Shown here: positions 1 through 15,852 of the stretch, piece by piece
Numbering within the stretch: position 1 is the stretch's first letter
How the letters are laid out: each line of letters starts with the position of its first letter
Assembly: GCA_034440375.1 (NCBI GenBank)
Contig: JAWXBZ010000090.1
Location: 1 to 15,852 of the forward strand
DNA: 15,852 nt
From: Candidatus Eiseniibacteriota bacterium
Lineage (GTDB): Bacteria > Eisenbacteria > RBG-16-71-46 > JABDJR01 > JAWXBZ01
Direction: 5' to 3'
Position numbers and translations under genes: made by a program
Notes under the pieces: generated by a model
Database searches by the model: none
Told to the model about the DNA's origin: nothing
What the model saw: only the letters and a program-made list of their open reading frames with translations

Positions 1-327
1 CGCCGCGATGACCAGCTTCGGCGTCTGCTCGAGGCGGTTCAGGGTCTCGTTGGCATGCAGGCAAAAGAAGAATTTAAAGCGCGGCGTCACCGAGTTGAGC
101 ATGGCGATGTTCGCGCCGGCGCTGAAGAACTTGTCGCCGTGGCCGCGCAGGACGATGACGTGAACGGATTCGTCCATGCGGGCTTTCAGGATGGCCTGGT
201 CGAGTTGGGTCATCATTTCATAGGTGTAGGTGTTGGCGGGCGGGTCGTTCAGCGTGATGATTCCCAGGCCGTCCTGGGAAGTGAAGTCGACGAGCGTCTT
301 CTCGGCGACGAGCGTGTTATCGGACAT
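1..327 (-). CDS. Enoyl-CoA hydratase/isomerase (crotonase) family protein, 5' part only (runs off the left edge)
   Basis: Not in the ORF track. Manual translation from ATG at 327: MSDNTLVAEKTLVDFTSQDGLGIITLNDPPANTYTYEMMTQLDQAILKARMDESVHVIVLRGHGDKFFSAGANIAML...RLEQTPKLVIAA. It carries the crotonase motifs ITLNxPxxN, VIVLxGxGxxFxAGA(D/N) and PKxVIAA. RBS AAAGGAG lies 8 nt upstream. Confidence 0.93.
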   Translation of the reverse strand, partial: MSDNTLVAEKTLVDFTSQDGLGIITLNDPPANTYTYEMMTQLDQAILKARMDESVHVIVLRGHGDKFFSAGANIAMLNSVTPRFKFFFCLHANETLNRLEQTPKLVIAA

Positions 328-456
328 GAGCAAGACTCCTTTCGATGGTCGGGTGCCGTCGAGATATCCGCGACGGGTCTGGTGTCACACGGAGCCGCCG
401 CCGCGCGGCGCTCCACTCTCAATGAAATCAGCTGCGATGCGGTCCTGCCAGGTCAG

Positions 457-518
457 TTGAATAGCGTCGTTCAAGGATTGAAATGGCAGTCAAGTTGTTA
501 CATTGAAACAAGTTAGGT
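457..518. promoter_or_regulatory. AT-rich putative promoter/operator region upstream of the crotonase gene, with several inverted repeats
   Basis: TTGAA-N8-TTCAA (457-474), TTGA-N8-TCAA (478-493) and TTGTT-N7-AACAA (495-511) occur in an AT-rich patch within GC-rich DNA. Confidence 0.45.
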
Positions 519-650
519 CGTTGGCGAAGTTCGCACACAGCGCCGCACGACGCGAAGGAGTTCACTGTACCGTGCGGACGGCCCCCCGGGCAAGATCAGT
601 CTCAGGCAGGCAAAACGGCGCCCTCGTAGGTACGGAGCGCCGCTCCGCAT

Positions 651-686
651 AAAAATACGGGGAGCGGATCGGTGTCCGCCCCCCGC
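651..686 (-). terminator. Rho-independent terminator (possibly bidirectional)
   Basis: On the minus strand GCGGGGGGCGGA-CACCGA-TCCGCTCCCCGT forms a 12-bp stem (2 G.U pairs) followed by ATTTTT. On the plus strand the stem is followed by TTCTCTTCT. Confidence 0.75.
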
Positions 687-773
687 TTCTCTTCTCCACC
701 GTGGCCCGGGACGGAGACACGGCAGTTCCTGCGCAGCCGGGTGGGTCAACTGTCCAGCCAACCGACCCGTCCC
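651..773 (-). ncRNA. Candidate structured RNA element of unknown family
   Basis: GGGACGG (773-767) can pair with CCGTCCC (714-708). An inner 10-bp hairpin GGGTCGGTTG-GCTGGA-CAGTTGACCC (768-743) overlaps that arm by 2 nt. A -10-like TATACA (785-780) lies upstream and the terminator (686-651) downstream. No family recognised. Confidence 0.3.
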
Positions 774-811
774 TACTACTGTATAGAAGCGTCAAATCGT
801 GACGAACCGGG

Positions 812-1012
812 TCATTTTTCCGCCACAATCAGCTTTTTCGACACCGTATGCCCCCCTGCAGTCAGCCGGTAGAGGTAGATGTCCGAAGGAACCTCGGAGC
901 CGGCCCCGTCCCGGCCATCCCACTCGATGGAAAGGCTGCCCGCGTCGAATGTGTCCTTGACGAGGGTCCCACCGGCCACCGGGTTCGGAACATTCTGCGT
1001 GGGAATTTTGAT
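812..1012 (-). pseudogene. Remnant of an FlgD-Ig / T9SS type A-like C-terminal sorting domain
   Basis: Open frame with no ATG: IKIPTQNVPNPVAGGTLVKDTFDAGSLSIEWDGRDGAGSEVPSDIYLYRLTAGGHTVSKKLIVAEK*. This matches the QNxPNP...TLV...WDGRDxxGxxVPSGxYxYRL...KKL signature, but the segment that normally follows PNP is missing. An upstream in-frame stop lies at 1027-1025. Confidence 0.75.
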
Positions 1013-1014
1013 CG

Positions 1015-2469
1015 TCAGTTCAGGTCAATCCAGACCGTCTTCGTCTGCGTGTATTCGCTGAGCGCATGCATGCCAAGTTCGCGGCCGAATCCGCTCTGCT
1101 TGTAGCCGCCGAACGGCGCGGCGGGGTCGTAGAAATTGTAGGTATTGACCCATACGGTGCCGGCTTCGAGACGGGCAGACAGGCGATGGGCGCGCCGGAG
1201 ATCGTTGGTCCAGAGCCCCGCGGCCAGGCCGTACATGTGGTCATTGGCCAACGCGATGGCGTCGTCGTCGCTCGAAAATTTCATGACGGCCACGACCGGA
1301 CCAAAAATTTCCTCCTGGGCGATGGTCATGCCCGGGGTCACGTTATCGAAAATCGTCGGCTTCACGAAGAAACCGTTGCCGATGACGTTGCGCTCGCCGC
1401 CGGTCACGAGGCGGGCGCCCTGATCACAACCCTGGGCAATGTAGGCCAGGATGGAGTTCATGTGCGCTTCGCTGACCTGGGCGCCGATGCGGGTCTTGGG
1501 ATCGAACGGATCGCCCTGTTTCATTCCCTCGGCGGTGGTCTTCAGCATCTCGACGAATTCGTCGTGTATCGACTCGTGCAGGAGCAGGCGCGAGCCGGCC
1601 GTGCAGATTTCACCCTTGCCGTAGAAGATGCCGTTGATGGCGCCCCGCACGGCCGCCTTGAGATCGGCGTCACCGAAGACGATGTTGGCGCTCTTGCCGC
1701 CCAGTTCGAGCGATAGGCGCTTCAGCGTGTCGGCCGCGCTCTTCATGATCGACTTGCCGACCGGCGTCGAACCCGTGAAGGCCACCTTGGCCACGCGCGG
1801 GTCCTCGAGCAACGCCTGCCCGGCCACCGAGCCCTTGCCGGTCAGGATGTTCAGCACGCCCGGCGGCAGGCCGGCCTCGATTCCCAGTTCCCCGAAGCGA
1901 AGGCACGAAAGTGGTGTCAGTTCCGCCGGCTTCAGAACCACCGTGTTCCCCACCGTCAATGCCGCGGCCACCTTGTACACCGACAGGAGCAGCGGAAAAT
2001 TCCAGGGCGTGATGGCTGCTACGACACCGAGCGGTTCGTGCCGCGTGTAGGTGTGGAACTGTCCACGCACCGGCAACACCTCGCCGTGCACTTTGTTGGC
2101 CCAGCCGGCGTAGTAGCGCAGCGCCTCGACGGCCAGCGGCACATCGATCCGACGGCTCTCGAAAAACGGCTTGCCGTTGTCGAGCGATTCCAGCGTGGCT
2201 ACCTCATCGGCGTGCGTTTCGAGGAGGTCAGCCAGCTTGTACAGAATTCGCCCTCGCTCCGTTGCCGGCAACCCCGGCCAGGGACCGTGTCGAAAGGCGT
2301 TGTGCGCCGCATCCACGGCCTTGCGCGCATCCTCCGCCGTGGCCGAGGCCACATCGATCAGCTTTTCGGCCGTGGCCGGATTGATCGTGGGGTGCACCGC
2401 GCCATTGGAGGCGGGGAACCGCTCGCCGGCAATGAGGAGATTGGTATTGGGAAAGACTGGTGTGGTCAT
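1015..2469 (-). CDS. NAD(P)-dependent aldehyde dehydrogenase
   Basis: 484 aa with ITPWNFP, KPAELTP, FTGSTxVG, LELGGKS (catalytic Glu), GEICTAGSR (catalytic Cys), EEIFGPV and PFGGYKQSGFGRE. RBS-like AAAGGG upstream. The substrate cannot be assigned. Confidence 0.97.
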   Translation of the reverse strand: MTTPVFPNTNLLIAGERFPASNGAVHPTINPATAEKLIDVASATAEDARKAVDAAHNAFRHGPWPGLPATERGRILYKLADLLETHADEVATLESLDNGKPFFESRRIDVPLAVEALRYYAGWANKVHGEVLPVRGQFHTYTRHEPLGVVAAITPWNFPLLLSVYKVAAALTVGNTVVLKPAELTPLSCLRFGELGIEAGLPPGVLNILTGKGSVAGQALLEDPRVAKVAFTGSTPVGKSIMKSAADTLKRLSLELGGKSANIVFGDADLKAAVRGAINGIFYGKGEICTAGSRLLLHESIHDEFVEMLKTTAEGMKQGDPFDPKTRIGAQVSEAHMNSILAYIAQGCDQGARLVTGGERNVIGNGFFVKPTIFDNVTPGMTIAQEEIFGPVVAVMKFSSDDDAIALANDHMYGLAAGLWTNDLRRAHRLSARLEAGTVWVNTYNFYDPAAPFGGYKQSGFGRELGMHALSEYTQTKTVWIDLN

Positions 2470-2515
2470 GATCGCACCCTTTCAGGGGATGGTTGCCGGG
2501 TTGGCAGGGGCGGGC

Positions 2516-2521
2516 AGTATA
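2516..2521 (-). promoter_or_regulatory. Putative -10 element of the aldehyde dehydrogenase promoter
   Basis: TATACT on the minus strand, about 46 nt upstream of the ATG, in GC-rich DNA. No clear -35. Confidence 0.4.
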
Positions 2522-2569
2522 GCCAGCGGGGGGGCACGGGGGCTATCCCAGCCTCTCGTCGGCTCCGGG

Positions 2570-2845
2570 CTAACGTCGAAGCAGCCGTGCGGCGTGAAAG
2601 ACGGTCACGATCTCCACAGACTCGTCGACAAGGCGGTGCACCAGCCGATAACTATCATGGATGACCTCCCGCAGTCAGTCGCTGCCAACTTCGGGGACGA
2701 CCCGGCCAGACCGCGGAAACTGCTCAAGTCGACTGACTGCCTGAATCAATCGATCGACCAACAGGCGGGCGTAGAGGTCCGAGTCACGTTGGACGTACAC
2801 GCGGATGGCCTCGACGTCTTCAACAGCCTGGCGGGTCCAGATCAC
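2570..2845 (-). pseudogene. RelE/ParE family type II toxin with an internal nonsense codon
   Basis: Not in the ORF track. Translation from GTG at 2845: VIWTRQAVEDVEAIRVYVQRDSDLYARLLVDRLIQAVSRLEQFPRSGRVVPEVGSD*LREVIHDSYRLVHRLVDESVEIVTVFHAARLLRR*. This is a full-length ParE/RelE pattern (WTxxAxxD, FPxSGRVVPE, YRLxxR, IxTVFH) with TGA at 2677-2675. Confidence 0.9.
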
Positions 2846-3033
2846 CTGGGTCGCCGGAGCAGGCGTTTCCTGGCTTCCTCATGGGTCATGGTATCCCCCG
2901 CATCAGCCTGTTCCAGGCCTTTCTGAACTTTTGCCAGGGAAAAAAGGCGCTCCATGGCGTCTTCGATCGTGGCATCGGCGGGTAATGCCTCCACGGCATC
3001 GAGAACCTGTTGTTTGACGCTAATCGGGGCCAA
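2842..3033 (-). CDS. Small antitoxin of the type II TA pair (partner of the RelE/ParE toxin)
   Basis: 63 aa: KQQVLDAVEALPADATIEDAMERL...KVQKGLEQADAGDTMTHEEARKRL. TTG start with RBS GGAGG 5 nt upstream. Its stop overlaps the toxin-frame GTG (GTGA). Confidence 0.85.
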   Translation of the reverse strand: MAPISVKQQVLDAVEALPADATIEDAMERLFSLAKVQKGLEQADAGDTMTHEEARKRLLRRPR

Positions 3034-3161
3034 GACAACCTCCAGTGGTTGGCGGAGGGACGAGGTACAGGGTACGGCTGGCCCATCATTCCTTCAAGCC
3101 GGTTTGCCCGTCCGGCCCCCTGGCTGTTTCCCGACGCCTGCTTCTGAAGTAACCTGTGGCC

Positions 3162-3653
3162 ATGAAGCCACTGGTCGGGATCATCATGGGTTCGAAAAGT
3201 GACTGGGAGACGCTGCGGCACACGGCCGCCCAGCTTGACGATCTGAAGATCCCGTATGAGGTGAAGGTCGTTTCGGCTCACCGGACGCCGGATCTTCTGT
3301 TCGAGTATGCAGCCGGCGCTGAAGGGCGTGGGCTTGAAGTCGTGATTGCCGGGGCCGGCGGCGCTGCCCATTTGCCGGGCATGACCGCCTCCAGGACGAT
3401 CCTGCCGGTCATCGGCGTACCGATTCAGTCGGCCGCTCTGAATGGTCTCGACTCGCTCCTGTCGATCGCCCAGATGCCGGGCGGGATTCCGGTGGCCACC
3501 ATGGCCATCGGGCGTCCGGGTGCCGTGAACGCGGCACTCATGGCCGCGGCCATCCTGGCCACTCATCACGCGCCCGTTCGCGAGGCGCTTCAGAAGTTTC
3601 GCGCCGAACAGACCCGTTCCGTTCTCGATCATCCTGACCCGCGCGAAGCATGA
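3162..3653 (+). CDS. purE: N5-carboxyaminoimidazole ribonucleotide mutase
   Basis: [50 protein letters not shown]. Start is ATG 3162, alternatively GTG 3156. Confidence 0.98.
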
Positions 3654-4747
3654 GGATCGGCGTTCTAGGCGGTGGCCAGCTCGGGCGAATGCTGGCCCTG
3701 GCCGGACTGCCCCTGGGACACACGTTCACCTTTCTCGACCCCGGTGATGCGGCGCCCATGGCGCCCGTGGCCCGCCAGATCCGGGCCAGGTACGACGACA
3801 AGGCCGCGCTCGACCAACTCGCCGCCGCGTGCGATGTCGTCACCTGGGAATTCGAGAACGTTACGGCGGGCCCGCTGCTTCATCTGGAGGCCGACGGCGT
3901 GCCGGTGCGGCCCGGGCCCCGCTCCCTGGAGCCCAAGCAGGATCGCCTGGATGAGAAACTCTTCTTTCGTCGCCTCGGCATTCCCACCACGGACTTTGAG
4001 CCGGTTGATTCCCGATCGGAGTTCGACGGGGCGCTGAAGAGGCTCGGAACGCCGATCGTGGTCAAGACACGTCGCCAGGGGTACGACGGCAAGGGACAGG
4101 CGGTCATTGACCGGCCGGATCAGATCGAGGACGCCTGGGCCGGACTCGGTGGCCAGCCGTTGCTGCTCGAGAGGAAGATCCCCTTTGATCGAGAGCTCTC
4201 GATACTGGCCGTCCGCAGTTTGTCCGGCGAGTGTCGCTTCTGGCCGCTTGTCGAAAACAGGCACGAGTCGGGAATGCTGGTGAGAAGCGTGGCGCCGATG
4301 GCGGACGATACACCGCAGCTTGAAGCGCAGGCCGACGACTATGTCCGGCGCATTCTTGATTCGATTGGTCATGTCGGGGTGCTGGCGCTTGAGCTCTTCC
4401 AGGTGGGAGACGATCTGCTGGCCAACGAGATGGCACCCCGTGTGCACAACTCCGGCCACTGGACGATTGAGGGGGCGGTGACCAGCCAGTTCGCCAACCA
4501 CGTCAGGGCGATCACGGATCGACCGCTTGGTTCGTGCGAGGCGGTGGGCCTTTCCGTCATGATCAATCTCATCGGGACGGTCCCGGACGAGCACGCCTTG
4601 CTCACCGTCCCGGGAGCCTCGTTACATCTTTATGGGAAGTCAGAAGCTCCACGACGGAAGTTGGGTCATGTCACGGTGGTTTCACGGACGATCGAGGAAC
4701 GGATGAAGTCCCTCGCAGTCCTGGACTCGCTGCAATCCAAGGCTTAG
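3650..4747 (+). CDS. purK: N5-carboxyaminoimidazole ribonucleotide synthase (ATP-grasp)
   Basis: [46 protein letters not shown]...RKLGHV. ATGA overlap with the purE stop. Confidence 0.98.
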
Positions 4748-4983
4748 TTGACCAATATTGTATTAGAGTAAAACTCTTGATGGGCCACGGATAAAACGTG
4801 TGTCACCACGTTAATCGGGTCAATGGTGAATTCAAATTGAAACCGTAAACTTGTCAATAAAAGCCATTAACTTGTTTATAACACTCAAGTTAGGTTCTTG
4901 GCAGCCGATCACCACGCCAGACAAGAAACTGGGCAATTTGAACCAAATTGTCGCGAATCGACCCCCGTCGGGCTGGAGATGCA
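4748..4983 (+). promoter_or_regulatory. AT-rich promoter/regulatory region of the DUF11 operon
   Basis: Visibly AT-rich 236-bp intergenic region. Inverted repeats: TTCAA-A-TTGAA (4831-4841), TAACTTG-N11-CAAGTTA (4868-4892), CAATTTG-AAC-CAAATTG (4934-4950). RBS GGAG at 4975-4978. Confidence 0.6.
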
Positions 4984-6000
4984 ATGACTTCGTGTTTCAA
5001 CAAGAGAAATCCTGTTTGGGCAACATGGGTGACAGCCGCCATCGTCGTCAGCCTCTTCCTCGGCACCGCTTCGGAATCCGGAGCCGCCGGCACCGCGGCC
5101 TGCCGCGAGATCGTCAACCAGGCTACGGCCAGCTGGACGATTGGAATCACCGACTTCTCCGTGTCCAGCAATTCGGTCACGACGACCGTGGCGGAAATTC
5201 TGGATGTCGTCACGACCTGGCAGGATGCCTCGGCGGTGGTGGTGACCTCGGCCGCCACATCGCAGGTGCTGACGTTCCTCGTCACGAACATCGGGAACGG
5301 TACGGATTCCTACACGCTGACGCCGGCCGACAACCTGGGCGGCGACAACTTCGACCCGGGCTTCGTCCGCCTTGTGCTCGACAGCAACACCAACGGCATG
5401 TATGACGCGGGCGTCGACCAGCCATACCTGGCCGGCGTTGACGATCCGGTACTGGCCGCTGATTCGTCCGTTGTCGTCTTTGCCCTGAATGATGTCTCGG
5501 CCGGTCTGAATGATGGCGATACCGGCGACTTTCAACTGACCGCCACATCCAGAACCGGAAGCGGCGCCCCGGGCACAGTCATTCCCGGGGGCGGCGAATG
5601 CGGCAACAACGCGGTGGTCGGTAATTCCGGCGGCGAATCGTCAGCCATCGGCACCTACGTCAAGTCGGACGTTGTCGTCGGCATGACCAAGTCCGCCCAG
5701 GTCAGCGACCCGTTCGGCGGAACCGAACCGGTCCCAGGCGCCACCGTCACCTACACCATTCAGGTCACCATTTCAGGAACAGGGACGGCAAACAATCTCA
5801 ATATCGTCGATCCGATTCCGGCCAACACCACCTACGAGACTGGCTCGCTGACGCTCAACAGCGCCGGGCTCTCGGACGCCCTCGACCTGGACGCGGGAGA
5901 TGTTGGCGGAACGGCGGCCGACACGATCACCGTCCAGATGGGCAATGTCGCCGCCGGTGGTGGCGTTCACACGATCACGTTTACCGTCACCATCGATTGA
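4984..6000 (+). CDS. Secreted DUF11-family protein A, putative pilus shaft/minor subunit (N-terminal donor hairpin + middle Ig-like domain + C-terminal incomplete DUF11)
   Basis: ATG 4984 with RBS. Sec signal ends ...SESGA|. Mature N-terminus AGTAACREIVNQATASW...SSNSVTTTV. Middle domain has TNIGNGTD and DSNTNGMYDAGVD. C-terminal domain MTKSA...PGATVTYTI...IVDPIPANTTY...TITFTVTID*. The subunit role is inference. Confidence 0.85.
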   Translation: MTSCFNKRNPVWATWVTAAIVVSLFLGTASESGAAGTAACREIVNQATASWTIGITDFSVSSNSVTTTVAEILDVVTTWQDASAVVVTSAATSQVLTFLVTNIGNGTDSYTLTPADNLGGDNFDPGFVRLVLDSNTNGMYDAGVDQPYLAGVDDPVLAADSSVVVFALNDVSAGLNDGDTGDFQLTATSRTGSGAPGTVIPGGGECGNNAVVGNSGGESSAIGTYVKSDVVVGMTKSAQVSDPFGGTEPVPGATVTYTIQVTISGTGTANNLNIVDPIPANTTYETGSLTLNSAGLSDALDLDAGDVGGTAADTITVQMGNVAAGGGVHTITFTVTID

Positions 6001-6013
6001 GGGGGATGAACCG

Positions 6014-6496
6014 ATGACACGATTCCGCACGCTGCTGATGATGGTCGTTCTTGCGGTCGGCGCGACTGAAGTTCTGGCCGGCGAAGCCGTCACGCTCCAT
6101 ACCGAAGCCCTGACGGAAGTGACCCTGGTCAACGAAGAGGGCAAGACCGAAGTCCGACTCGTCGAGGCGGCCCGTGTGGCTCCCGGCGACGAGGTGGTGT
6201 ACGCCATCCACTGGGAAAACTCCGGCCGGAAGCCAGCCGAAGCTGTGGTGATCACCAATCCGATCCCGAAACACATGGTCTGCACGACGATCGAGGAGGC
6301 CGCCCCCGCGCGAACAACCGTGTCGGTGGACGGCGGCAAGTCGTTTGGCCCCCTGGCACGTCTGACGGTGGCCGGACCGAACGGGACGACCCGACCGGCG
6401 ACGGCCGCCGACTGCACACATGTGCGTTGGAATTTCGATCAGCCGCTTCCCCCGGGCCACAAGGGGACATTTCATTTTCGCGCCAACCTGCTCTAG
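6014..6496 (+). CDS. Small secreted DUF11-like protein B lacking the isopeptide residues (putative chaperone/cap)
   Basis: ATG 6014 after GGGGGA. Signal peptide ends ...TEVLA|. Sequence APGDEVVYAIHWENSG...VVITNPIP...SVDGGKSF...THVRW...FHFRANLL*. The role is inference. Confidence 0.82.
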   Translation: MTRFRTLLMMVVLAVGATEVLAGEAVTLHTEALTEVTLVNEEGKTEVRLVEAARVAPGDEVVYAIHWENSGRKPAEAVVITNPIPKHMVCTTIEEAAPARTTVSVDGGKSFGPLARLTVAGPNGTTRPATAADCTHVRWNFDQPLPPGHKGTFHFRANLL

Positions 6497-6523
6497 CCCC
6501 CACACTTCAGAAGGAGAACATCC

Positions 6524-7636
6524 GTGACGTTCCCGAACATCCACATTCCACTCGTTCGAGCTATACGCATCGTTGGCGCGGGGGCGCTGGTGATCGGCCT
6601 CGACATCGTGACGGCTCATGCGGCCGGCACGCTTTCCGGCACGGCCATCGACAACCATGCCACCATCAACTACAAGGTCGGCGGACTTGATCAGACACCG
6701 GTCGACAGCGATACGGCATCGTTCGTCGTCGACAGCAAGATCGACCTGGCGGTCTCGACCAGCGACGGAGCCGCCGTCCCCGTGACGCCCGGATCGAGCG
6801 ACCAGGTCCTGACGTTTCAAGTGACCAACGAGGGAAACACCACCCGCGATTTCTCGCTGACCGCGCCGAACTCCGCCACCCCCGCTTTTGCGGAGCCGTC
6901 GGAAGACTTCGATGCCGGCAACATTCGCATTTTTGTTGACGCCAACGGCAACGGCACCTACGACTCCGGTGTTGATCTGGCCACCTACATCGACGAACTC
7001 GAGCCCGATTCGTCGGTCACGGTCTTCGTCGTCTCGAACATTCCCCTCTCCGTGGGCAATGGTGATGTGGCCTCCACGGATCTGATCGCCCAGGCCGCCA
7101 TCGGCGGTACTCCCCTTTCGCAGGGTGTTGATGTGCTGAGCGATGATTCCGGTTCGGCCGACAATCCGGCCACGGTCCAGACCGTCTTCGCGGATGGCGC
7201 GGGCTCGGCGGATCCAGCCAATGACGGTCGCCACTCTTCGAAGGATGCCTACAAGGGCCGCTCGGCGGATCTGAACGTGTCGAAGACCGCGGACGTGTCA
7301 TTCGATCCGGTCAACGGCGGCACGAACCCCAAGGCGATTCCCGGTGCCACGGTCGATTACGGCATTCAGGTGGACAACAACGGCACCGTGTCGGCCACCA
7401 ATGTGGTGGTCGTGGACGCGGTTCCGGGTTCGACCTCATTCCTGGTCGGGTCGACGGCATCCACCCCGGGCGGCACCACCATCGAGTATTCCGACGACGG
7501 CGGAGCCACGTGGAGTTACTCGCCGGTGGCGGGCGTCGATGGCTCCGATCCGAGCGTCACCCATCTGCGCGTCACGTTCGCGTCCATCGCGAACGGGGCC
7601 GGTGGCCAGGTTGATTTCCAGGTCCTGATTCTCTAG
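6524..7636 (+). CDS. Secreted DUF11-family protein C, putative major pilus subunit
   Basis: GTG start with strong RBS AAGGAG. Signal ends ...TAHA|. Mature AGTLSGTAIDNHATINY...SDTASFVVD. Middle domain has TNEGNTTRD and DANGNGTYDSGVD. C-terminal domain LNVSKTA...KAIPGATVDY...VVDAVP...QVDFQVLIL*. Paralogous to protein A. Confidence 0.88.
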   Translation: MTFPNIHIPLVRAIRIVGAGALVIGLDIVTAHAAGTLSGTAIDNHATINYKVGGLDQTPVDSDTASFVVDSKIDLAVSTSDGAAVPVTPGSSDQVLTFQVTNEGNTTRDFSLTAPNSATPAFAEPSEDFDAGNIRIFVDANGNGTYDSGVDLATYIDELEPDSSVTVFVVSNIPLSVGNGDVASTDLIAQAAIGGTPLSQGVDVLSDDSGSADNPATVQTVFADGAGSADPANDGRHSSKDAYKGRSADLNVSKTADVSFDPVNGGTNPKAIPGATVDYGIQVDNNGTVSATNVVVVDAVPGSTSFLVGSTASTPGGTTIEYSDDGGATWSYSPVAGVDGSDPSVTHLRVTFASIANGAGGQVDFQVLIL

Positions 7637-7686
7637 TTCGACGATTCAGGCCTGTGTGTTCCTGACATTCATGCTGCAGTCAATGA

Positions 7687-7725
7687 ACGCGGTGGAACTG
7701 GCGTCGGTCGCCGGTTCCACCGCGT
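7687..7725 (+). other. Strong intergenic stem-loop (mRNA stabiliser or partial terminator)
   Basis: ACGCGGTGGAACTGGCG-TCGGT-CGCCGGTTCCACCGCGT: 17-bp stem (one G.U pair) with a 5-nt loop and no U-tract. Confidence 0.75.
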
Positions 7726-7752
7726 CGTCCTGATCGAAAGACGAGGGTCTTG

Positions 7753-10700
7753 ATGGGGTGGATTCGACCGTTGCGACGAAGCCTGGCGCTGGGACTGTTG
7801 CTGGCGGCAGTTGTCGTCGGCCAGGCTCGCGGCAGCACGCCCGCCGGCACGACCATCACGAACACCGCTTTCGGGGCCTACCATCTGGTCGGAGTTGCGG
7901 ACACAGTTCGAACCCCCTCCAATTCGGTGACACTGATCACACGGGGTGGCCGCACCCCGGCCATATTGGAATTCCTGCGCCATGCGCCAGGTGCGCCGGA
8001 TGCCGAGTGGGTTCGGGTCAGCCGCATCGACACAACCCTGTCGCTGCCCCTCTTGCCGGCGGTGACCTTCTCACCGGGTGACGTTGTCGTGATGCGACTC
8101 ACCGATCGGGATCAGGACATCCAACGCAGTTCTGGTGAAACGGTCGCCGTCGAACTGGCGGTGAATCCGCTGGGTGATCACGAACTGGTTCTCCTCCACG
8201 AAACCGGTCCAGGCACCGGTGTGTTTGCCGGTTCCATGCCCAGCCGACTCGCCGCGCGCGCCATCCCGGGCAACGGCCGGCTGGAGGCGCGCACCATGGC
8301 TGAAGTCACCGGTCACTACGTCGATTTCGTCGACCCGACCGACACGGCTGCCGACATCGCCCTCTTTGCCGGCGAGGGGGCGCGGCTTCACCTGGACAAA
8401 TCGTCCGCACGGGCACGCGCCGCCATTGGCGACATCGTCGAGTACACGCTGCGCGTCGCGAATCCCGACCCATCGGAATCGGCCGAATCGGAGCGGGCGA
8501 CTTTGGTTCGCCTCGTGGATGATCTTCCCCGCGGCTTTCGCTACCGGCCGGGCACGACCCTGCGGGATGGACGACCAACCGGGAACCCCGAAATTTCCTC
8601 CGACGGCCGACAGCTTGTCTTCTCGATCGGCGACCTGGAGCCCGGTGAACCCGCTGCCATACGCTACGCAGTTGAAATCGGTGCGGGAAGCCGCTCGGGC
8701 GAAGCCATCAACTCCGCCGAGGCCGTTTCCTCCTCCGGACTGACATCGAACAGGGCCAGCGCATCGATTCTGGTCGCGGACGATTTTTTCCGCCACGGAT
8801 TCATCAGCGGCCGGGTGACCGTCGGTTCGTGCGATTCCACAGCGGTGCGAATCGGTGTTGCGGGAGTCCGGCTGTTTCTTGAAGACGGTACGTGGACGGC
8901 CACCGATGGGAACGGGCGCTACCACTTTCTGGGAGTGCCGGGCGGGATGCACGTGGTGGCATTGGATCGGGAAAGCCTGCCCCCGGGATTAATCCCCGCC
9001 GACTGTCCAACGACGCATCGGTTCGCCCGAAGTCTGGATTCGCAGTTTGTGCCGCTTTCCGAAGGGACTCTGTGGCGCGCGGATTTTCTCCTCGAACGAG
9101 GCGTTGGAGAGCGAGGCGGCACAGAGGGCGACGCTCCCGTCCATTCGGTGAGAGGTAATATTTCCGCGCACGATTCGACCCGGGCGGCGCCGAAGATGGC
9201 ACCGCCGACGGTTTTGATTGAATCATTGACTCCAGGCGACGAATGGCTCTGGCCGACCGAGGGATACAACCCTTCGATTCCAGGGCTCGCCGTCATGGTG
9301 AAGCACGCCGCCAAAGCGACAATCGAACTCACGAACAACGGCCGCGCCGTACCCGCGGTCAACCTGTCGGGAACATCCCGCAATGCCGACGGCACGGTGG
9401 CCGTTACCAACTGGGCCGGCATCGACCTGGTCATTGGTGAAAACCGGCTGGTAGTTCGCCTCGAGCAGGACGGCACCGTCACGACCTTGACTCGCACGAT
9501 TCACTACTCCGGGCCGCCGGTTGATGTATCGCTGGCAACGGGCGAATCGCGGCTGGTGGCGGATGGGCTCACCTCGCCGATCGTGGCGGTCCGCCTTGTC
9601 GATCGTGACGGACACCCCGCACGCGAACGTGTGGTCGGCACGTTTCATGTCGATCCGCCATACCGTTCCATGAGTCAGCTCGACGCGCAACGGGATAACC
9701 CTCTGGCCACGACGCCGGCACCCCAGTATCAGGTCGGACCGGACGGCATCGCCCGGATCGCGCTCGAGCCGACGCACCGGGCGGGTGAGGTCGTGCTGCG
9801 GTTTCCATTCGATGGGCGCATGAAGGAAGTGCGCGCCTGGCTTTCCCCGTCGGATCGCGGCTGGATGCTGGTGGGACTGGCCGACGGCACCGTTGGCTAC
9901 CGAACCATGTCCGACCATACCGAGTCGCTCGACGCCAACACCTCGGACGGTGATTACTACAGCAACGGCCGGCTGGCCTTCTACGCTCGCGGACGCGTCA
10001 AGGGTGAATGGCTGCTGACCCTGGCCATGGACACGAATGGGGGGCGGCCGGGTCCTTCTGCGGACCTCGACCGGGTCATCGATCCGGACAGCTACTACAC
10101 ACTCTACGGCGATGCCACCGCGCAGGATTACGATGCGCCGACATCGGGCAAAGTCTACGTGAGAATCGAACAGCGTCAGTTCTACGCCCTGTTCGGTGAC
10201 ACCGACGCGGGGCTTGCCCGGACGGAACTCAGCCGCTACAACCGACGGATCAGCGGTTTCAAGTCGGAGTACCGGGGACGACATGCCGGCTGGACGGCCT
10301 TCGCCGCCGAGTCCGAGAGCCGCTTCGTTCGCCGCGAGATTCGGGGCAACGGCACCTCCGGTCCCTACGACCTCGACCACCTGGAGATGGTGCTCAACTC
10401 TGAGCAGGTCACGATCGAAACGCGGGACCGCTTTCGGAGCGAAATCATTCTCCGCTCGGCCATCATGCATCGACATACCGACTACGACATCGATTATGCG
10501 GCCGGCACACTTTTTTTCCGTGAACCGATCTTCAGCCAGGATGCTGAATTCAACCCGATCTTCCTGGTTATCACATTCGAGTCCCGCGATCCGGAATCGA
10601 ACCGCATCCAGGCCGGTGGACGCGCGTCGCTGCATCTGGCCGGCGGAGCCGTCGAGACCGGCCTGACCGGCATCTACAATGAAGACGGCACCTCGCCGGG

Positions 10701-12312
10701 TCGACTGGCCGGTGGCGACATCCAGTGGCATGTTGACCCGATGACGACCGTTCGCGGCGAAGGGGCGTGGAGTGAGAATGGTGACGGACGGCAGGGATCG
10801 GCCTGGTTGGCCCAGCTGGAACGTCACGGCGGGCGGCTCGATGGCACCGCCTGGTTTCGACGCCAGGCAGCCGGCTTCGGCCTGGCACAACAGAATCAAA
10901 GCGAGCAGGGAATCGAGAAGTACGGCGCTGATCTGTCCTGGCATGCAACCCGGGCCGACCGCGCCACCTTGCAAGCCTGGCGCGAGCTCAACCTGTCCAG
11001 CGGGTCGCGCCGCGATGTGGGCGCGGTCGGCATTCAACATGACGCCGGACGACTGAATCTGCGCGCCGGGTTGCGGCACGCCGAGGATGATATCCCGGGC
11101 CGGCCCGAGGCCATTTCGGATCAGCTGACCGCGGGTGGTGATGTGCGTTTCTTCCGCGGCCGACTGAGCCTCAAGGCCGATCATCACCAATCGATTGGTG
11201 ATCGAGGTGCCAATGTCGACTACCCGACCCGAACCCTCCTCGGTGCCGACTGGCGCGTCATGCGAAATCTGAGCCTGATCGTGGCCCAGGAATTCACCAA
11301 CGGACCCTCGGTCGACACCCGTGCCACCCGTGTGGGCCTTACTTCGGAACCGTGGAGCGGTGGGGAAGTGGCCACCTCGCTCAGTCGCCGCGGCACGGAG
11401 GAGGGAAGCCGACTCTTCGCCAACCTGGGCCTGCACCAGAAGTGGCGCCTTTCGGATCGCTGGTTCATGGATGCTGGACTGGATCATAGCCGCACGATCG
11501 GCACGCCCGAGAGCCTCCGGGTCAACCCGGCCGCTTCTCCCGCGTCGTCCGGCGTGGCCGACTTCGTATCCGCTTCCGTAGGCGCGGCCCGCCACGGGGA
11601 CAAATGGCAGTGGAACGGGCGTGCCGAGTATTTCAATTCCAGGGGCGAGAGGCGCTGGACATTTGCCCCGAGTTTTCTCATTCAGCCCCGCGAGGCACTC
11701 GGCGTGGCCTTCGGTGGTCGGCTCTTCCTGACGCGCGGCCCGGTGGAACGGACTCGCGCCGACCTTCGTGCCAGCCTGGCCATTCGGCCGGACGATTCCC
11801 CCTGGGTGGCACTCAATCGTCTTGATCTGGTCGTGCTCGATGAGTCGGGCGGAAGCTCCGAAATCCGCGAGTGGCGCCTCATCGACAACCTTCACATCAA
11901 TCGTTCGATCGGGTCACATCTCCAGGCAACCGTTCAGTACGGCGGCAAGTACATCGAACAGACCGTGATGGGCCGGATTCTTTCCGGATATACCGACCTC
12001 TGGGGGCTCGATCTCCGCCGGGATATTGCGGATAACCTGGATGTTGGCCTGTCCGGTGGAGTCCGACACAGCTGGACACCCGGCCTCCGGGATTACCATG
12101 CCGGCGTTTCAGCCGGGTACATTCTGGCCCGCGGCGTCTGGTTGCAGGGCGGCTACAACATCACCGGGTTCGAGGACGAGGACTTCAGCGGGTCCGCGGT
12201 AACGAGTCACGGTCCCTACCTGCGACTGAGCGCCATCCTTGTCACCGATGCGCTGACCCGCCTCGGCTTCGGTGGCCATTCGAAACTACGGCGGAACGGG
12301 GGAACTCCATGA
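7753..12312 (+). CDS. Large outer-membrane protein D: donor hairpin, complete DUF11, SdrD-B-like and Ig-like domains, C-terminal beta-barrel (putative usher/anchor)
   Basis: About 1519 aa. Signal ends ...QARG|, then STPAGTTITNTA...SNSVTL. Complete DUF11: LDKSS...GDIVEYTL...VDDLP...AINSA...SNRASA. SdrD-B-like segment GVAGVRLFLEDG...TDGNGRYHF. From about 9860 it contains ~800 aa of alternating, Gly/aromatic-rich amphipathic strands ending GYNITGFEDEDFS...GPYLRL. Confidence 0.85.
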   Translation: MGWIRPLRRSLALGLLLAAVVVGQARGSTPAGTTITNTAFGAYHLVGVADTVRTPSNSVTLITRGGRTPAILEFLRHAPGAPDAEWVRVSRIDTTLSLPLLPAVTFSPGDVVVMRLTDRDQDIQRSSGETVAVELAVNPLGDHELVLLHETGPGTGVFAGSMPSRLAARAIPGNGRLEARTMAEVTGHYVDFVDPTDTAADIALFAGEGARLHLDKSSARARAAIGDIVEYTLRVANPDPSESAESERATLVRLVDDLPRGFRYRPGTTLRDGRPTGNPEISSDGRQLVFSIGDLEPGEPAAIRYAVEIGAGSRSGEAINSAEAVSSSGLTSNRASASILVADDFFRHGFISGRVTVGSCDSTAVRIGVAGVRLFLEDGTWTATDGNGRYHFLGVPGGMHVVALDRESLPPGLIPADCPTTHRFARSLDSQFVPLSEGTLWRADFLLERGVGERGGTEGDAPVHSVRGNISAHDSTRAAPKMAPPTVLIESLTPGDEWLWPTEGYNPSIPGLAVMVKHAAKATIELTNNGRAVPAVNLSGTSRNADGTVAVTNWAGIDLVIGENRLVVRLEQDGTVTTLTRTIHYSGPPVDVSLATGESRLVADGLTSPIVAVRLVDRDGHPARERVVGTFHVDPPYRSMSQLDAQRDNPLATTPAPQYQVGPDGIARIALEPTHRAGEVVLRFPFDGRMKEVRAWLSPSDRGWMLVGLADGTVGYRTMSDHTESLDANTSDGDYYSNGRLAFYARGRVKGEWLLTLAMDTNGGRPGPSADLDRVIDPDSYYTLYGDATAQDYDAPTSGKVYVRIEQRQFYALFGDTDAGLARTELSRYNRRISGFKSEYRGRHAGWTAFAAESESRFVRREIRGNGTSGPYDLDHLEMVLNSEQVTIETRDRFRSEIILRSAIMHRHTDYDIDYAAGTLFFREPIFSQDAEFNPIFLVITFESRDPESNRIQAGGRASLHLAGGAVETGLTGIYNEDGTSPGRLAGGDIQWHVDPMTTVRGEGAWSENGDGRQGSAWLAQLERHGGRLDGTAWFRRQAAGFGLAQQNQSEQGIEKYGADLSWHATRADRATLQAWRELNLSSGSRRDVGAVGIQHDAGRLNLRAGLRHAEDDIPGRPEAISDQLTAGGDVRFFRGRLSLKADHHQSIGDRGANVDYPTRTLLGADWRVMRNLSLIVAQEFTNGPSVDTRATRVGLTSEPWSGGEVATSLSRRGTEEGSRLFANLGLHQKWRLSDRWFMDAGLDHSRTIGTPESLRVNPAASPASSGVADFVSASVGAARHGDKWQWNGRAEYFNSRGERRWTFAPSFLIQPREALGVAFGGRLFLTRGPVERTRADLRASLAIRPDDSPWVALNRLDLVVLDESGGSSEIREWRLIDNLHINRSIGSHLQATVQYGGKYIEQTVMGRILSGYTDLWGLDLRRDIADNLDVGLSGGVRHSWTPGLRDYHAGVSAGYILARGVWLQGGYNITGFEDEDFSGSAVTSHGPYLRLSAILVTDALTRLGFGGHSKLRRNGGTP

Positions 12313-13949
12313 AGCCGCGGGGAACCGGCGTTGCGCTGCTGGCCGCCTGGCTGTTTTTTGGCGTTGGTTCGGCCATTGCCGTGTGTGTTTGCGGCTACGG
12401 CGACGGATTTTTTACCACGCATACAAACATCGTGATCGATGGCAGCATGGTCGACTGGGCCACGGTTCTGCTAGACACGGACAACACGTCCTGTGATGGC
12501 GCCACGCCCAATGTGCCACCCCAGCCGGATCGCGACGCGCCAGTCCAGTCGACCGGGCGCGATCTGAGTCAGTTCACCTACACATGGAACGGCACCCATG
12601 TTCAGACCCAGACCGTGAGGGCCGCCAGCTCCACCAACGTGCAACGCTTCATCTATTACGCGGATCTGGATAACGACGGTTTCATGGAAACCGGTGAGCG
12701 GGTCATCGTCGCCGGCTGGAAGGGCTCCAACCGCAACGTCGAGCTGTACCTGGGTCACTATGTGGCCAGCGCTCCCGCCGGTGATCCAATGGTCGACACG
12801 AACGGCTTTGCCGATGGTTACACCCTTCCGGGAAGGGTTCCCGACCTTCCGTCAGCCGGTCAACCCCACTACTCGGGAAACTGGGGATCGCTGGATGGCG
12901 TCTCCATGGAGTGGCGCGTGTCCTGGGCCGATGCGCCGGGAGCGCCCGGCCTTGGCGTCGCCCCCGGTTCGGCCTTCACGTTCCACGTGTCCAGCACCAA
13001 TTCCAATCCGGGGGCCGCATCCTTCCCGGACCAGGTGGACGACAACATGGCCGGATGCGGCGGTGGCGCGGCCACGACGCAGTATGCCCAACTGGACTTC
13101 TTTCCCGATCGAAGCCTCGTGACGACGGCCGGATCGGTCGTCCACGCCGCCCATCGGGTCGCGAACCTCGGAAATGGTAACGACCTCTTCGACCTGACGG
13201 CGGGAACGCCTTCGGGCGCCCATTCGCCGACCATGACTTTCCTGCGGGATGTCGATCGAAGCGGCACCTGGACGGCCGGCGACCTGGCCCTCGTCAACAC
13301 CGGCGGCGGGTCCGCGGTAGACACCGGCACGATGGCGCCGGGCGATACCCTCTGGGTTCTGATCCGTTACACCGTGGCCGGGGGTGCCACCGGAACCGCG
13401 ACGATTGTTTCCACTGCACGGTCCGGCTTCAATCCAAACCGGACCAACATCGTGACCGACACCGTGGCCATCACCCAGCTTCCCAAACTGTTGGTCACCA
13501 AGAGCTCGCAGACGATTTACGATCCGGTGGCCGGTGTCAGTGCCACGGCCAAGGCCATACCGGATGCCCGCGTGGACTACACCATTCGCATCGAGAACGA
13601 AGGGACTGGAAGCGCAGATGCCAACACGGTCACGATCACCGATCCGTTGCCGGCCACGACCCGGCTCTACGTGGGCAATCTGGGTGGAATCGGTTCGGGC
13701 CCGGTTGCCTTCACGGACGGTTCACCGGTCAGCGGGCTGGTGTACATCTTCATCAGCCTGGCCAGCCCGGTGGACAATGTGGCGTTTTCGAACGATGGCG
13801 GAGCCACGTTCACGTACACGCCATCTCCGGATATCGAAGGTTTCGACGAGTCGGTCACCCACCTGCGAATAAGCTTCCTGGGTTCGATGAATGCGGCGGC
13901 GGGGGGCAACCCGTGGGCCAGGGTCCGCTTCCGGGTGGCCGTAAGGTAG
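12309..13949 (+). CDS. Secreted DUF11-family protein E, putative tip adhesin (unique Cys-containing N-terminal domain + middle domain + incomplete DUF11)
   Basis: ATGA overlap with the D stop. Signal ends ...SAIA|VCVCG. About 230-aa unique N-domain with 4 Cys. Middle domain has ANLGNGND and DVDRSGTW. C-terminal domain LLVTKSS...KAIPDARVDY...ITDPLP...FSNDGGATF...VTHLRI...VRFRVAVR*. Confidence 0.85.
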   Translation: MKPRGTGVALLAAWLFFGVGSAIAVCVCGYGDGFFTTHTNIVIDGSMVDWATVLLDTDNTSCDGATPNVPPQPDRDAPVQSTGRDLSQFTYTWNGTHVQTQTVRAASSTNVQRFIYYADLDNDGFMETGERVIVAGWKGSNRNVELYLGHYVASAPAGDPMVDTNGFADGYTLPGRVPDLPSAGQPHYSGNWGSLDGVSMEWRVSWADAPGAPGLGVAPGSAFTFHVSSTNSNPGAASFPDQVDDNMAGCGGGAATTQYAQLDFFPDRSLVTTAGSVVHAAHRVANLGNGNDLFDLTAGTPSGAHSPTMTFLRDVDRSGTWTAGDLALVNTGGGSAVDTGTMAPGDTLWVLIRYTVAGGATGTATIVSTARSGFNPNRTNIVTDTVAITQLPKLLVTKSSQTIYDPVAGVSATAKAIPDARVDYTIRIENEGTGSADANTVTITDPLPATTRLYVGNLGGIGSGPVAFTDGSPVSGLVYIFISLASPVDNVAFSNDGGATFTYTPSPDIEGFDESVTHLRISFLGSMNAAAGGNPWARVRFRVAVR

Positions 13950-13954
13950 GAGGC

Positions 13955-14548
13955 CTATCGTCCCGGGTGTTCGACCAGGCCTAGTTCGCCCGGCGGCAGC
14001 GGCCGGGTCGGCAGCACGCCGGCGGCTTCCATTCCTTCAGCCACCTCGACAAAAAGCGCCTGCATCGTCTCGTCAGCGAGAACGATGACCACCCTGGTCA
14101 GGCTCGACTGATTGTTGAGATACCGGATAATCGTGTCGAGAATGATCTCGGCGGCCCGTCGGGGCGGGAATCCAGACTCGCCGGCCGAAATGGCCGGCAT
14201 GGCCAGACTCCGAAGGCCGTTCTGGTCGGCCACACGGAGAATTCGGTAAATGGTCGATCGGAGTTTTTCGTCTTCGTCCCCTTCACCCCAGCGTGGCCCG
14301 ACCGCGTGGATGACATGCAGCGCCTTGAGCTCGCCACCGCTGGTGATGACCGCGTCGCCGGTCGGCACGGGGGCCTTCCGGTTGCACTCGAGCTGGATCA
14401 TCTTGCCGCCCTTCTGGCGGATCAGGACGGACACGCCCGACTTGAGCACGAGCCCGGAGTTGGCGGGATTGACGATGGCGTCTTCCTCACGCTCCGTCAG
14501 GTCGCCGACGGTAATTTCGAAAGTGGCCCGATGCAGTTGGCGTTTCAT
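13955..14548 (-). CDS. Macro domain protein (MacroD/YmdB-like ADP-ribose-binding fold)
   Basis: GDLT...DAIVNPAN, GDAVITSGGELKALHVIHAVGP, SLAMPAISAG..GFP. Convergent with gene E across a 5-nt gap. Confidence 0.92.
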   Translation of the reverse strand: MKRQLHRATFEITVGDLTEREEDAIVNPANSGLVLKSGVSVLIRQKGGKMIQLECNRKAPVPTGDAVITSGGELKALHVIHAVGPRWGEGDEDEKLRSTIYRILRVADQNGLRSLAMPAISAGESGFPPRRAAEIILDTIIRYLNNQSSLTRVVIVLADETMQALFVEVAEGMEAAGVLPTRPLPPGELGLVEHPGR

Positions 14549-14626
14549 AGGGCGGAAAGCCTACCACAGCCCCGGGGCCTCGGCTATTCTAGGGTCTCCT
14601 GCCAATCACTTCCTCCTGGAGATGCC

Positions 14627-15076
14627 ATGAGCCTGCTCGAAACGCTGACGGAAGACATGAAGAACTCAATGCGCGAACGTGATGCCCTGAAGACATCCGT
14701 CCTCCGGATGGCCATCTCGGATTGCAAGTATGGCAAGGTCGAGAAGATGCGCGAGCTGACCGACGATGAGGTCGTGGCCGTCATCAAGAAAGGCATCAAG
14801 AGTCGCGAGGACTCGGTGACGCAGTACCGAAATGCCGGGCGGGACGATCTGGCCGACAAGGAAGCCACCGAGGCTCTCATTCTGAAAAAGTACGTGCCAG
14901 CAACCATGGGTGGTGCGGAGCTGGAAGCCATCGTTGTTCAGGCCATCGCCGAGACGGGCGCCGTGAGCACCAGGGACATTGGCAAGGTCATGAAAGCCGT
15001 CCTTGCCGCACACGGTGCCCGGGTCGACGGCAAGGATGTCCAGAAGCTTGCCGCGGCCCGTCTCGGCGGTGCCTGA
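14627..15076 (+). CDS. yqeY: GatB/YqeY domain protein
   Basis: ATG 14627 with RBS GGAG. 149 aa: LTEDMKNSMR...LRMAIS...KSREDSVTQYRNAGRDDLADKE...DIGKVMK...VDGK. The 256-aa ORF in the track is over-extended at its 5' end. Confidence 0.93.
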   Translation: MSLLETLTEDMKNSMRERDALKTSVLRMAISDCKYGKVEKMRELTDDEVVAVIKKGIKSREDSVTQYRNAGRDDLADKEATEALILKKYVPATMGGAELEAIVVQAIAETGAVSTRDIGKVMKAVLAAHGARVDGKDVQKLAAARLGGA

Positions 15077-15089
15077 GTTTTTGGAATTG

Positions 15090-15852
15090 TCAGTCGTGGC
15101 CGTGATGGGAGCCGTGCCCGCCGTGACCGAAACCCGCACCGCGAACGCCCAGACCCGCCGGCAACAGCCGCCGCAGGCTATCGAATCGAACGACCTCATC
15201 CGGTGACAGCACGGCACGAATAGCCGTTCTTGCGTTCTTCTCGATCTGAATCCCCTGGTACAGGACGTCTTCCGGTGCCATCCCGTCGTTCGCCATCTGT
15301 TCGATGAGCTGACGGCGGGCCGGCTCTGTCTGTTCGATTGCGGAAGACAGCCGGGCCCCGCCCGCCTCGTCGAGTCGAAGGGCACGACCGAGGCGATCTG
15401 CTTGCCTTGCCATGCGCCGATCGAGATTCTCGGCGCGTCGATCGAGCGCCTTTTCCTTCATTTCATCCCGGCGTTCGTGCAGGCGATTGAAGATATCCTC
15501 GCCAAGGGCGCTCTTCATCCGGCCTTCCGTGTCCAGTCGAATCGCCCGCAAACCATCGCGAAGCTCTTCGTCGCTCAGCTTCCCTTCGGCATAACCGGTG
15601 TGCAGGTCCCGCATCCGGCCGGCTGCTTCGCGATGAATCACTCCGATCTGCTTCATCTCCTCGGTCGAAACACCCAGGTGACCGGCAAGTCGTTTGGCCA
15701 TCGGGCGCATGGATGATGCGTCATCCGTGCCGCGATGCGCCTTTTGGTCCGCACGGCGCGCCGCGCGCCGCTCTTCGATGTAGGTCGCGAAATTGTCCAG
15801 CTGGTCATTGTTCAGAACGGCTGCCGCATCCACCAGGTGATCAAATCCCGGC
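15090..15852 (-). CDS. Hypothetical alpha-helical repeat protein (Spy/CpxP-like LTxxQ-type repeats) with His-rich C-terminal tail; 5' end outside the window
   Basis: The frame is open to the window edge (PGFDHLVDAAAVLNNDQL...). Repeated motifs VLNNDQ, ALGEDI, VLSPDE and LGVSTEE/LRLDEAG occur among charged helices. It ends GHGGHGSHHGHD*. Confidence 0.7.
   Translation of the reverse strand, partial: PGFDHLVDAAAVLNNDQLDNFATYIEERRAARRADQKAHRGTDDASSMRPMAKRLAGHLGVSTEEMKQIGVIHREAAGRMRDLHTGYAEGKLSDEELRDGLRAIRLDTEGRMKSALGEDIFNRLHERRDEMKEKALDRRAENLDRRMARQADRLGRALRLDEAGGARLSSAIEQTEPARRQLIEQMANDGMAPEDVLYQGIQIEKNARTAIRAVLSPDEVVRFDSLRRLLPAGLGVRGAGFGHGGHGSHHGHD

Follow-up and report, generated by a model that had tools for sequence, protein, structure and literature searches.

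The window analysed here is the whole of a 15,852-nucleotide stretch (positions 1 to 15,852, forward strand) of contig JAWXBZ010000090.1 from a Candidatus Eiseniibacteriota bacterium (assembly GCA_034440375.1). It contains five genes, here called A, B, C, D and E, that would encode the parts of a secreted fibre made from immunoglobulin-like (Ig-like) domains of the DUF11 family; the subject of this analysis is the small protein encoded by B. DUF11 has been renamed CLIPPER, a CnaA-like Ig domain of nine strands in which an isopeptide bond, catalysed by an Asp, joins a Lys of the first strand to an Asn of the penultimate strand; in structure 9IFR the triad is Lys715, Asp748 and Asn806, and the triad is not present in every DUF11 domain (PMC12617251). 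In the window, A, C and D in their mature form have at the N-terminus a two-strand segment (I-x-N-x-A...S-N-x-V) that reads in sequence like the last two strands of the DUF11 domain of D, and which we call the donor hairpin. At their C-termini, A, C and E have truncated domains in which both the Lys and the Asp are retained; we call these live acceptors or sockets. The coordinates of the genes and their parts are collected in Table 1.

Table 1. Gene B, its parts and its neighbours in the window (positions are those of the window).
Feature	Positions	Strand	Description
Gene B	6014..6496	+	160 aa, stop codon included in the positions; secreted, acceptor-only, putatively bond-dead half-CLIPPER protein
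Signal peptide of B (residues 1-22)	6014..6079	+	Predicted cleavage V-L-A/G, from a reading of the sequence
Strand 1 of B (residues 26-32), VTLHTEA	6089..6109	+	Live acceptors have the isopeptide Lys here
B-specific beta-hairpin arm (residues 33-51)	6110..6166	+	Strands 26-39 and 45-51 in the AlphaFold2 (AF2) model
Loop and strand 3 of B (residues 73-88), P-A-x-x-V-V-I-T-N-P-I-P	6230..6277	+	Asn82 at the catalytic-Asp position
Most conserved module of B (residues 104-139)	6323..6430	+	Asp-box S-V-D-G-G, then L-x-V...D-G-x-x-R-P-A...D-x-T-H-V-R-W
Gene A	4984..6000	+	338 aa from the ATG at 4984; donor hairpin, middle complete Ig domain, C-terminal live acceptor
Donor hairpin of A (residues 35-76)	5086..5211	+	Asn45 at 5116-5118; piece used in the complex model
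Middle domain of A (residues 70-228)	5191-5667	+	Complete CLIPPER-like Ig domain
Gene C	6524..7636	+	370 aa; donor hairpin (Asn44 at 6653-6655) and live acceptor (Lys254, Asp298)
Gene D	7750..12312	+	1520 aa; N-terminal donor hairpin (Asn38 at 7861-7863) and one complete DUF11 domain with its own Lys, Asp and Asn
Gene E	12309..13949	+	546 aa; acceptor-only, Lys and Asp retained (V-T-K-S and T-D-P-L-P motifs)

The family of B was represented by 123 small proteins (130-210 aa), each standing for a cluster at 50% identity, that were drawn from the best 150 of 2520 HMMER matches (E <= 0.001) together with 30 word-index matches; the B orthologues of 80 genome loci served as a second sample. The N-terminus of B reads as a basic n-region and a hydrophobic core followed by V-L-A and G at residues 20-23, and an A-x-A-like cleavage site is kept in the family (Ala at position 20 in 84 of the 123 members and at position 22 in 59). 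The remainder is a single domain of ~138 residues. B matched TIGR01451 at 27.8 bits against a cut-off of 24, and Pfam DUF11 at 22.9 bits, which is under the gathering score of 24.6 and spans residues 50-93 only; A, C, D and E match the same two families. The core motifs P-G-D...Y...N-x-G...x-P-I-P are common to B and CLIPPER domains, and by its sequence B is a member of the DUF11/CLIPPER family. No I-x-N-x-A donor motif was found at the mature N-terminus of B. The initial annotation had described B as a signal peptide followed by the acceptor part of the fold only, with no donor hairpin, and both points were borne out, with a single DUF11/CLIPPER-type domain whose C-terminus coincides with those of the A and C sockets. 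The motifs that it had listed as common to B, C and E are present, although they are looser in C and E than first written: PGDEVVY in B corresponds to PGATVDY in C and PDARVDY in E, SVDGGKSF to SDDGGATW and SNDGGATF, and THVRW to THLRV and THLRI, respectively, while all three proteins terminate on a strand of the F-x-F/V type.

The AF2 model of B has a mean predicted local distance difference test score (pLDDT) of 91.2, with values of 94-98 in the blocks from residue 31 on and of ~60 in the signal region (residues 1-20). Structural alignment with VIA-align matched the model to 9ifr_A (Z 8.1, root-mean-square deviation (rmsd) 2.7, 91 residues aligned) over chain positions 18..109; other Ig-like chains (AP mu subunits and YcnI) scored within 1 Z of that match. 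The middle domain of A, in comparison, aligned with the whole 9ifr_A chain (Z 7.6, rmsd 3.2, 112 of 123 residues). We read the numbering of 9IFR as 18-140, as inferred from the alignment of that middle domain over 18..140. Since this complete domain covers the entire chain, the match of B ends about 30 residues early, ahead of the strand that bears the Asn. B lacks two structural hallmarks of CLIPPER domains, namely the nine strands (the Asn strand and the last strand being absent) and the Lys/Asp/Asn triad. As modelled, B corresponds to strands one to seven of a CLIPPER domain with two additions, an arm at residues 33-51 and an Asp-box/hairpin insertion at residues 104-131. Within the arm, Glu35 is found in 104 and Gly43 in 115 of the 123 family members.

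Profile alignment (hhalign) of B residues 53-160 with the sockets of A and C, each represented by its family of orthologues, gave probabilities of 95.6% and 97.3%, with coincident C-termini and with Asn82 of B falling on the Asp column (D-P-I-P or D-x-x-P) of the sockets. A Foldseek search of the Protein Data Bank (PDB) with the B model gave no match at E <= 0.001, and sequence searches of the PDB with the B-family profile and with the complete DUF11 domain of D returned no CLIPPER entry. From the ESM Atlas came only clusters of small proteins like B, either labelled DUF11 or without a name, and no structure of B.

Both residues on which the bond depends in live sockets are missing from B, as the initial annotation had reported: the first strand, VTLHTEA, contains no Lys, and the codon at 6257-6259 is AAT, which places an Asn (Asn82, within I-T-N-P-I-P) at the position of the catalytic Asp. 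Among the 123 family members, none has a Lys at any of the inward-facing positions of strand 1 (26, 28, 30 and 32), and 119 of them have Leu, Val or Ile at position 28. At position 82, 106 members have Asn, 10 have Asp and 7 have another residue; among the orthologues at the 80 loci, 75 have Asn there and 5 have Asp. The expectation that orthologues would consistently lack the two residues was thus upheld throughout for the inward Lys and in most, though not all, of the family for the Asp. Three close orthologues in the window's phylum have T-N, S-N and V-D at positions 81-82. In a distant clade of B proteins the same positions read T-L in all eight copies inspected, again with no Lys on strand 1. 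The dead state of the 123 representatives and the 80 loci, together with the Leu of the distant clade, indicates that the loss of bond chemistry in B is ancient and maintained, and judged by the same sequences Asn82 itself is clade-specific and not essential. That the features of B recur in no fewer than 123 clusters (50% identity) and at 80 loci is more than chance would give.

The distant clade comprises loci L086-L093 (genomes G076, G079, G088, G095, G096, G127, G144 and G145), all from the window's phylum. Its B proteins have a shorter arm (corresponding to residues 33-51) and a C-terminal extension of ~10 residues, and many of its genomes have two or three D-like genes and may run several such systems. 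Asp82 is retained at L003, L040, L049, L050 and L080, and also at L085, still with no inward Lys; these orthologues may represent a stage in the evolution of dead sockets from live ones, or the reverse. Two other lysines were considered as equivalents of the socket Lys. Lys44, which a MAFFT alignment had paired with it, was rejected: a Lys is found there in 37 of the 123 members, and the residue lies in the B-specific arm, outside the hhalign match. Lys29 was dropped because it faces outward according to the hydrophobic alternation of the strand; a Lys occurs at this position in 17 of 123 members, in combination with Asp82 in 5.

A model of the donor hairpin of A (residues 35-76, with a 69-row alignment) in complex with mature B (residues 23-160, with a 123-row alignment; B was the scored partner) gave interaction scores (ipSAE, interaction prediction score from aligned errors) of 0.82, 0.82 and 0.83 in three runs, compared with 0.02 for the best of three controls, corresponding to a verdict of 'supports binding'. 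The mark used for this verdict is reached by 58 of 80 solved complexes and by 2 of 110 mismatched pairs, counts that are only roughly valid for an analysis with custom alignments. The runs share at least 94% of their contacts, with a partner pLDDT of 90. In the modelled complex the first donor strand (A 47-51) runs antiparallel to strand 3 of B (82-78), Asn45 of A contacts Asn82 and Tyr63 of B, and the second donor strand (A 60-70) lies on strand 1 of B (24-32), while the B-specific arm is outside the confident interface. This geometry is the one expected when a CLIPPER domain is completed, and the edge of B is modelled as open and complementary to the hairpin, a result that bears on fit and not on affinity. 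An open groove is likewise indicated by the coverage of only the first seven strands of 9IFR, the hairpin docking on strands 1 and 3. The structure prediction of B with a donor N-terminus that the initial annotation had proposed as a check gave a docked hairpin. Of the three refuting conditions that it had named (no groove, no binding of donor peptides, Lys and Asp kept in orthologues), none was borne out in these computations. The larger suggestion, that B binds hairpins reversibly and without crosslinking, is favoured in so far as the A hairpin docks into the edge of B and the loss of Lys and Asp is conserved; for the binding itself the support is the model, and at that level non-covalent binding of a donor hairpin by B is supported.

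B belongs to the core gene set of a conserved operon, A-B-C-D(-E). At the 80 loci, which were seeded with B, the gene order is A-B-C-D in 45, A-B-C-D-E in 9 and a small variant of these in 19, with B alone in 7, so that at least one of A, C or D neighbours B at 73; open reading frames (ORFs) resembling E are found at 14. Taxa represented among the loci include Sphingomonadales, metagenome-assembled genomes (MAGs) of gamma- and delta-proteobacteria, Bacteriovoracaceae and Gemmatimonadales; the operon also occurs in the window's own small phylum. For a less biased view, we surveyed 206 genomes of that phylum using the C-terminal 1020 residues of D and, separately, the B profile. D-like matches (E <= 1e-20) were found in 64 genomes and full-length B-like matches in 52 (counted by hand), with 51 of the latter also D-positive; the two genes share a contig in 38 of those 51 (also counted by hand). 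These counts include genome G072, without which they become 63 D-positive, 51 B-positive and 50 with both. One distant locus, when inspected, showed the A-B-C-D order.

B-like genes also occur outside the operon, as orphan paralogues with the motif N-N-P-I/V-P (L025, 9914-10399; L067, 8946-9425; also L006, L022 and L024). Neighbouring genes were scanned at L025 and L067, both from Sphingomonadales; at each, the orphan directly follows genes for a glycoside hydrolase 25, a cytidine deaminase and a dCTP deaminase, and the MAG of L025 also carries a full operon (L071). A secreted protein of 319 aa (P0126) contains two B-type domains in tandem, with strand-3 motifs V-T-V-P-V-P in the first and V-V-D-P-V-P in the second. 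An apparent fusion of B to a receiver domain (P0070, 306 aa) was set aside, as its B signal peptide is internal and it is probably a gene-calling read-through.

The neighbouring genes provide the premise on which any role for the B groove depends. Among A orthologues (n=69), Asn45 and Lys236 are each conserved in at least 90% and Asp276 is invariant; among C orthologues (n=71), the Asn, Lys and Asp columns are each conserved in at least 80%; and among D orthologues (n=58), the N-terminal I-x-N-x-A...S-N hairpin motif is kept in at least 80%. These residues in A and C and the hairpin motif in D lend sequence support to a split CLIPPER domain, divided into donor hairpins and acceptor sockets, with putative cross-linking between them. 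An AF2 model of full-length A (mean pLDDT 91.5) shows the strands of its N-terminal hairpin, 42-53 and 56-68, with confidence. The ~1000 C-terminal residues of D match no family in Pfam and TIGR scans, and are presumed to form an outer-membrane barrel that acts as a platform or anchor. E matches TIGR01451 at residues 413-453 and, from its sequence, is probably a covalently held tip subunit; its residues 36-42 (12414-12434, T-T-H-T-N-I-V) bear a faint likeness to the donor motif (T-I-T-N-T-A in D). The start of E overlaps the stop of D (ATGA, 12309-12312), an arrangement that suggests translational coupling of the two genes. The TTG start listed for D has an ATG right after it (7750-7755), and for A the listed TTG start (4948) is probably incorrect, the ATG at 4984 being a better fit to the signal peptides of the orthologues.

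We tentatively propose, with a probability of about 0.42, that B is a non-covalent binder of donor hairpins that acts as a periplasmic holdase or escort until the hairpin is handed over to a live socket at D. B would be exported through its Sec signal peptide and would fold as the first seven CLIPPER strands, that is, as a socket of the kind found at the C-termini of A, C and E. In the live sockets the isopeptide Lys would be presented by strand 1 and the catalytic Asp by strand 3, with the two missing strands and their reactive Asn supplied by A, C and D at the start of the mature chain. With sockets in A, C and E and hairpins on A, C and D, the subunits would plug into one another head to tail and would probably become cross-linked. 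In B the open edge would be kept, with a hydrophobic residue in place of the Lys and Asn in place of the Asp, so that a donor hairpin could be taken up in the normal register without bonding. B would in this way mask the reactive hairpins of A and C, and possibly of D, before their hand-over at the D platform, where covalent capture by a live socket would make the exchange irreversible. The compartment, the reversibility, the hand-over and the timing are the parts of this scheme that we infer. A more far-reaching version, which we regard as rather doubtful, would make B the first natural donor-side pilus chaperone, holding a reactive Asn tag in the periplasm until a live catcher takes it over at a giant platform in the outer membrane; the pathway would resemble chaperone-usher assembly in mirror image, would be driven by spontaneous isopeptide bonds and not just by the completion of a fold, and would use residues 104-139 as a handle by which the platform recognises loaded B.

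Several observations weigh against a holdase role. The docking covers the hairpin of A alone, and it may reflect nothing more than a homologous fragment filling out a very common fold. The 36 positions of the predicted interface show no greater conservation than the remainder of mature B (mean entropy 2.00 compared with 2.15, with 2095 of 10000 random sets as low), and only 7 of the 30 most conserved positions lie within it, leaving 23 outside, most of them in two clusters. The most conserved positions of all, 104-108 (S-V-D-G-G) and 117-139 (L, V, G, R-P-A, D and T-H-V-R-W), lie off the groove, and from this pattern the key interaction of B may be a different one; the picture of B as a binder of hairpins, as initially drawn, is at best incomplete. 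Of the 64 D-positive genomes of the phylum, 13 have no full-length B, several of them being fragmented or incomplete, and the orphan B-like paralogues are found far from any A, C or D gene. Furthermore, a reversible cap alone cannot keep free live sockets that share its compartment from capturing the hairpins covalently, so the holdase model needs an excess of B, fast export or a further block.

The conserved cluster off the groove persists in the distant clade with Leu82, and conservation of this kind points to residues 104-139 as a possible second binding surface of B. Its Asp-box, S-V-D-G-G-K-S-F, has an invariant Ser104 and has Asp106 in 118 of the 123 members. The B-family profile gave weak matches to sialidase Asp-box regions in the PDB; of the five proteins only C matches the BNR/Asp-box family (PF02012, S-x-D-x-G-x-T-W), weakly (E 0.077) and at the place where B has its Asp-box, and B itself gave no match at E <= 0.1. 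Shorter versions of the module are present in C and E of the window.

That surface is central to an alternative in which B works without a donor groove, as a stable accessory Ig protein whose Asp-box/R-P-A...T-H-V-R-W module would bind another partner, for instance a glycan, the cell wall or a part of D in the periplasm. The docked hairpin would in that case be an artefact of fold completion. The distribution of conserved positions, the persistence of the module where position 82 is Leu, the orphan paralogues beside housekeeping genes, and the natural tandem B-B protein, evidence that the domain needs no added strands for stability, all speak for such a role. We nevertheless consider it unlikely, since B is truncated at exactly the same point as the live sockets, the complex model combines a high score with clean controls, and B is syntenic with donor-bearing genes at 73 of the 80 loci.

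The same docking geometry would equally suit a structural position for B within the fibre, and as B has a socket and no donor hairpin, the far end is the sole place that it could occupy. There it could serve as a non-covalent distal cap or first subunit, shielding the first hairpin or priming assembly at D in fibres and operons without an E-type adhesin; B is acceptor-only like E, and most loci have no detectable E. A non-covalent tip would, however, be a weak link under shear in a cross-linked fibre, and in this window B is found together with E, an acceptor-only protein that is live. A cap would also be needed in about one copy per fibre, yet B is second in the operon and is as strictly conserved as the subunits, and the second conserved surface would be left unaccounted for; on balance we think a cap improbable, to much the same degree as a role without the groove. 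Less probable still is that B regulates termination or length by capping the hairpin of D, such that D could not lock onto the basal socket and end growth until B was displaced. D does have the same I-x-N-x-A...S-N hairpin as A and C, and B and D co-occur tightly, but the complex model, which covers the hairpin of A, gives no sign of a preference for D over A or C, and B is located between A and C instead of adjoining D. The computed results fit a holdase, a cap and a regulator alike.

The holdase reading can be set against better-known systems. The periplasmic chaperones PapD and FimC consist of two Ig-like domains and donate their G1 strand into the groove of a pilus subunit. As in the role proposed for B, they prevent polymerisation in the periplasm and deliver subunits to an outer-membrane platform by strand exchange. 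B is not homologous to them: it gave no match at E <= 0.1 to the Pfam families PF00345 and PF02753, which we take to be those of PapD/FimC-type chaperones, it has one domain, and it would accept the donor hairpin of a subunit rather than donate a strand. CLIPPER domains (PF01345, TIGR01451, 9IFR) resemble B in sequence family and in their CnaA-like Ig fold, from which B differs in stopping after strand 7 of 9, in having no Lys, Asp or Asn strand, and in adding the hairpin arm and the Asp-box module; B is also a free-standing single domain, whereas CLIPPER is a repeat in long adhesin stalks. The live sockets of A and C share with B the truncation at strand 7 and the operon setting, but carry the Lys on strand 1 and the Asp on strand 3 that B lacks. 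The closest analogy for the proposed role may be a split isopeptide domain whose catcher, having lost a catalytic residue, binds its tag reversibly. In SpyDock, which is SpyCatcher with Glu77 changed to Ala, SpyTag is bound reversibly with dissociation constants of 0.75 and 0.073 uM (PMC6465384). SpyCatcher is man-made, from a CnaB2 domain with a one-strand tag, while B would be a natural CnaA-like counterpart for a two-strand tag, with both Lys and Asp lost and with binding that is predicted.

A full-text literature search, with most subscription journals outside its reach, brought up no account of split CLIPPER fibres or dead socket proteins, and the literature on DUF11 with a donor strand yielded only papers on DUF1102 archaeal tafi and endospore appendages, which are not relevant here. 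The operon type is widespread and uncharacterised, and the role proposed for B, which draws on a single docking model and on conservation that agrees with it in part, would be new. Should B prove to be no hairpin binder, it would be a degenerate Ig-domain accessory protein. If it does bind hairpins reversibly, it would explain what keeps a fibre that ligates itself without an enzyme from polymerising in the wrong compartment, and would represent a new assembly logic for Gram-negative surface fibres. Protein engineering could profit as well, since a live catcher and its natural dead counterpart, both for a two-strand tag, would offer covalent and reversible capture on one scaffold, comparable to SpyCatcher and SpyDock.

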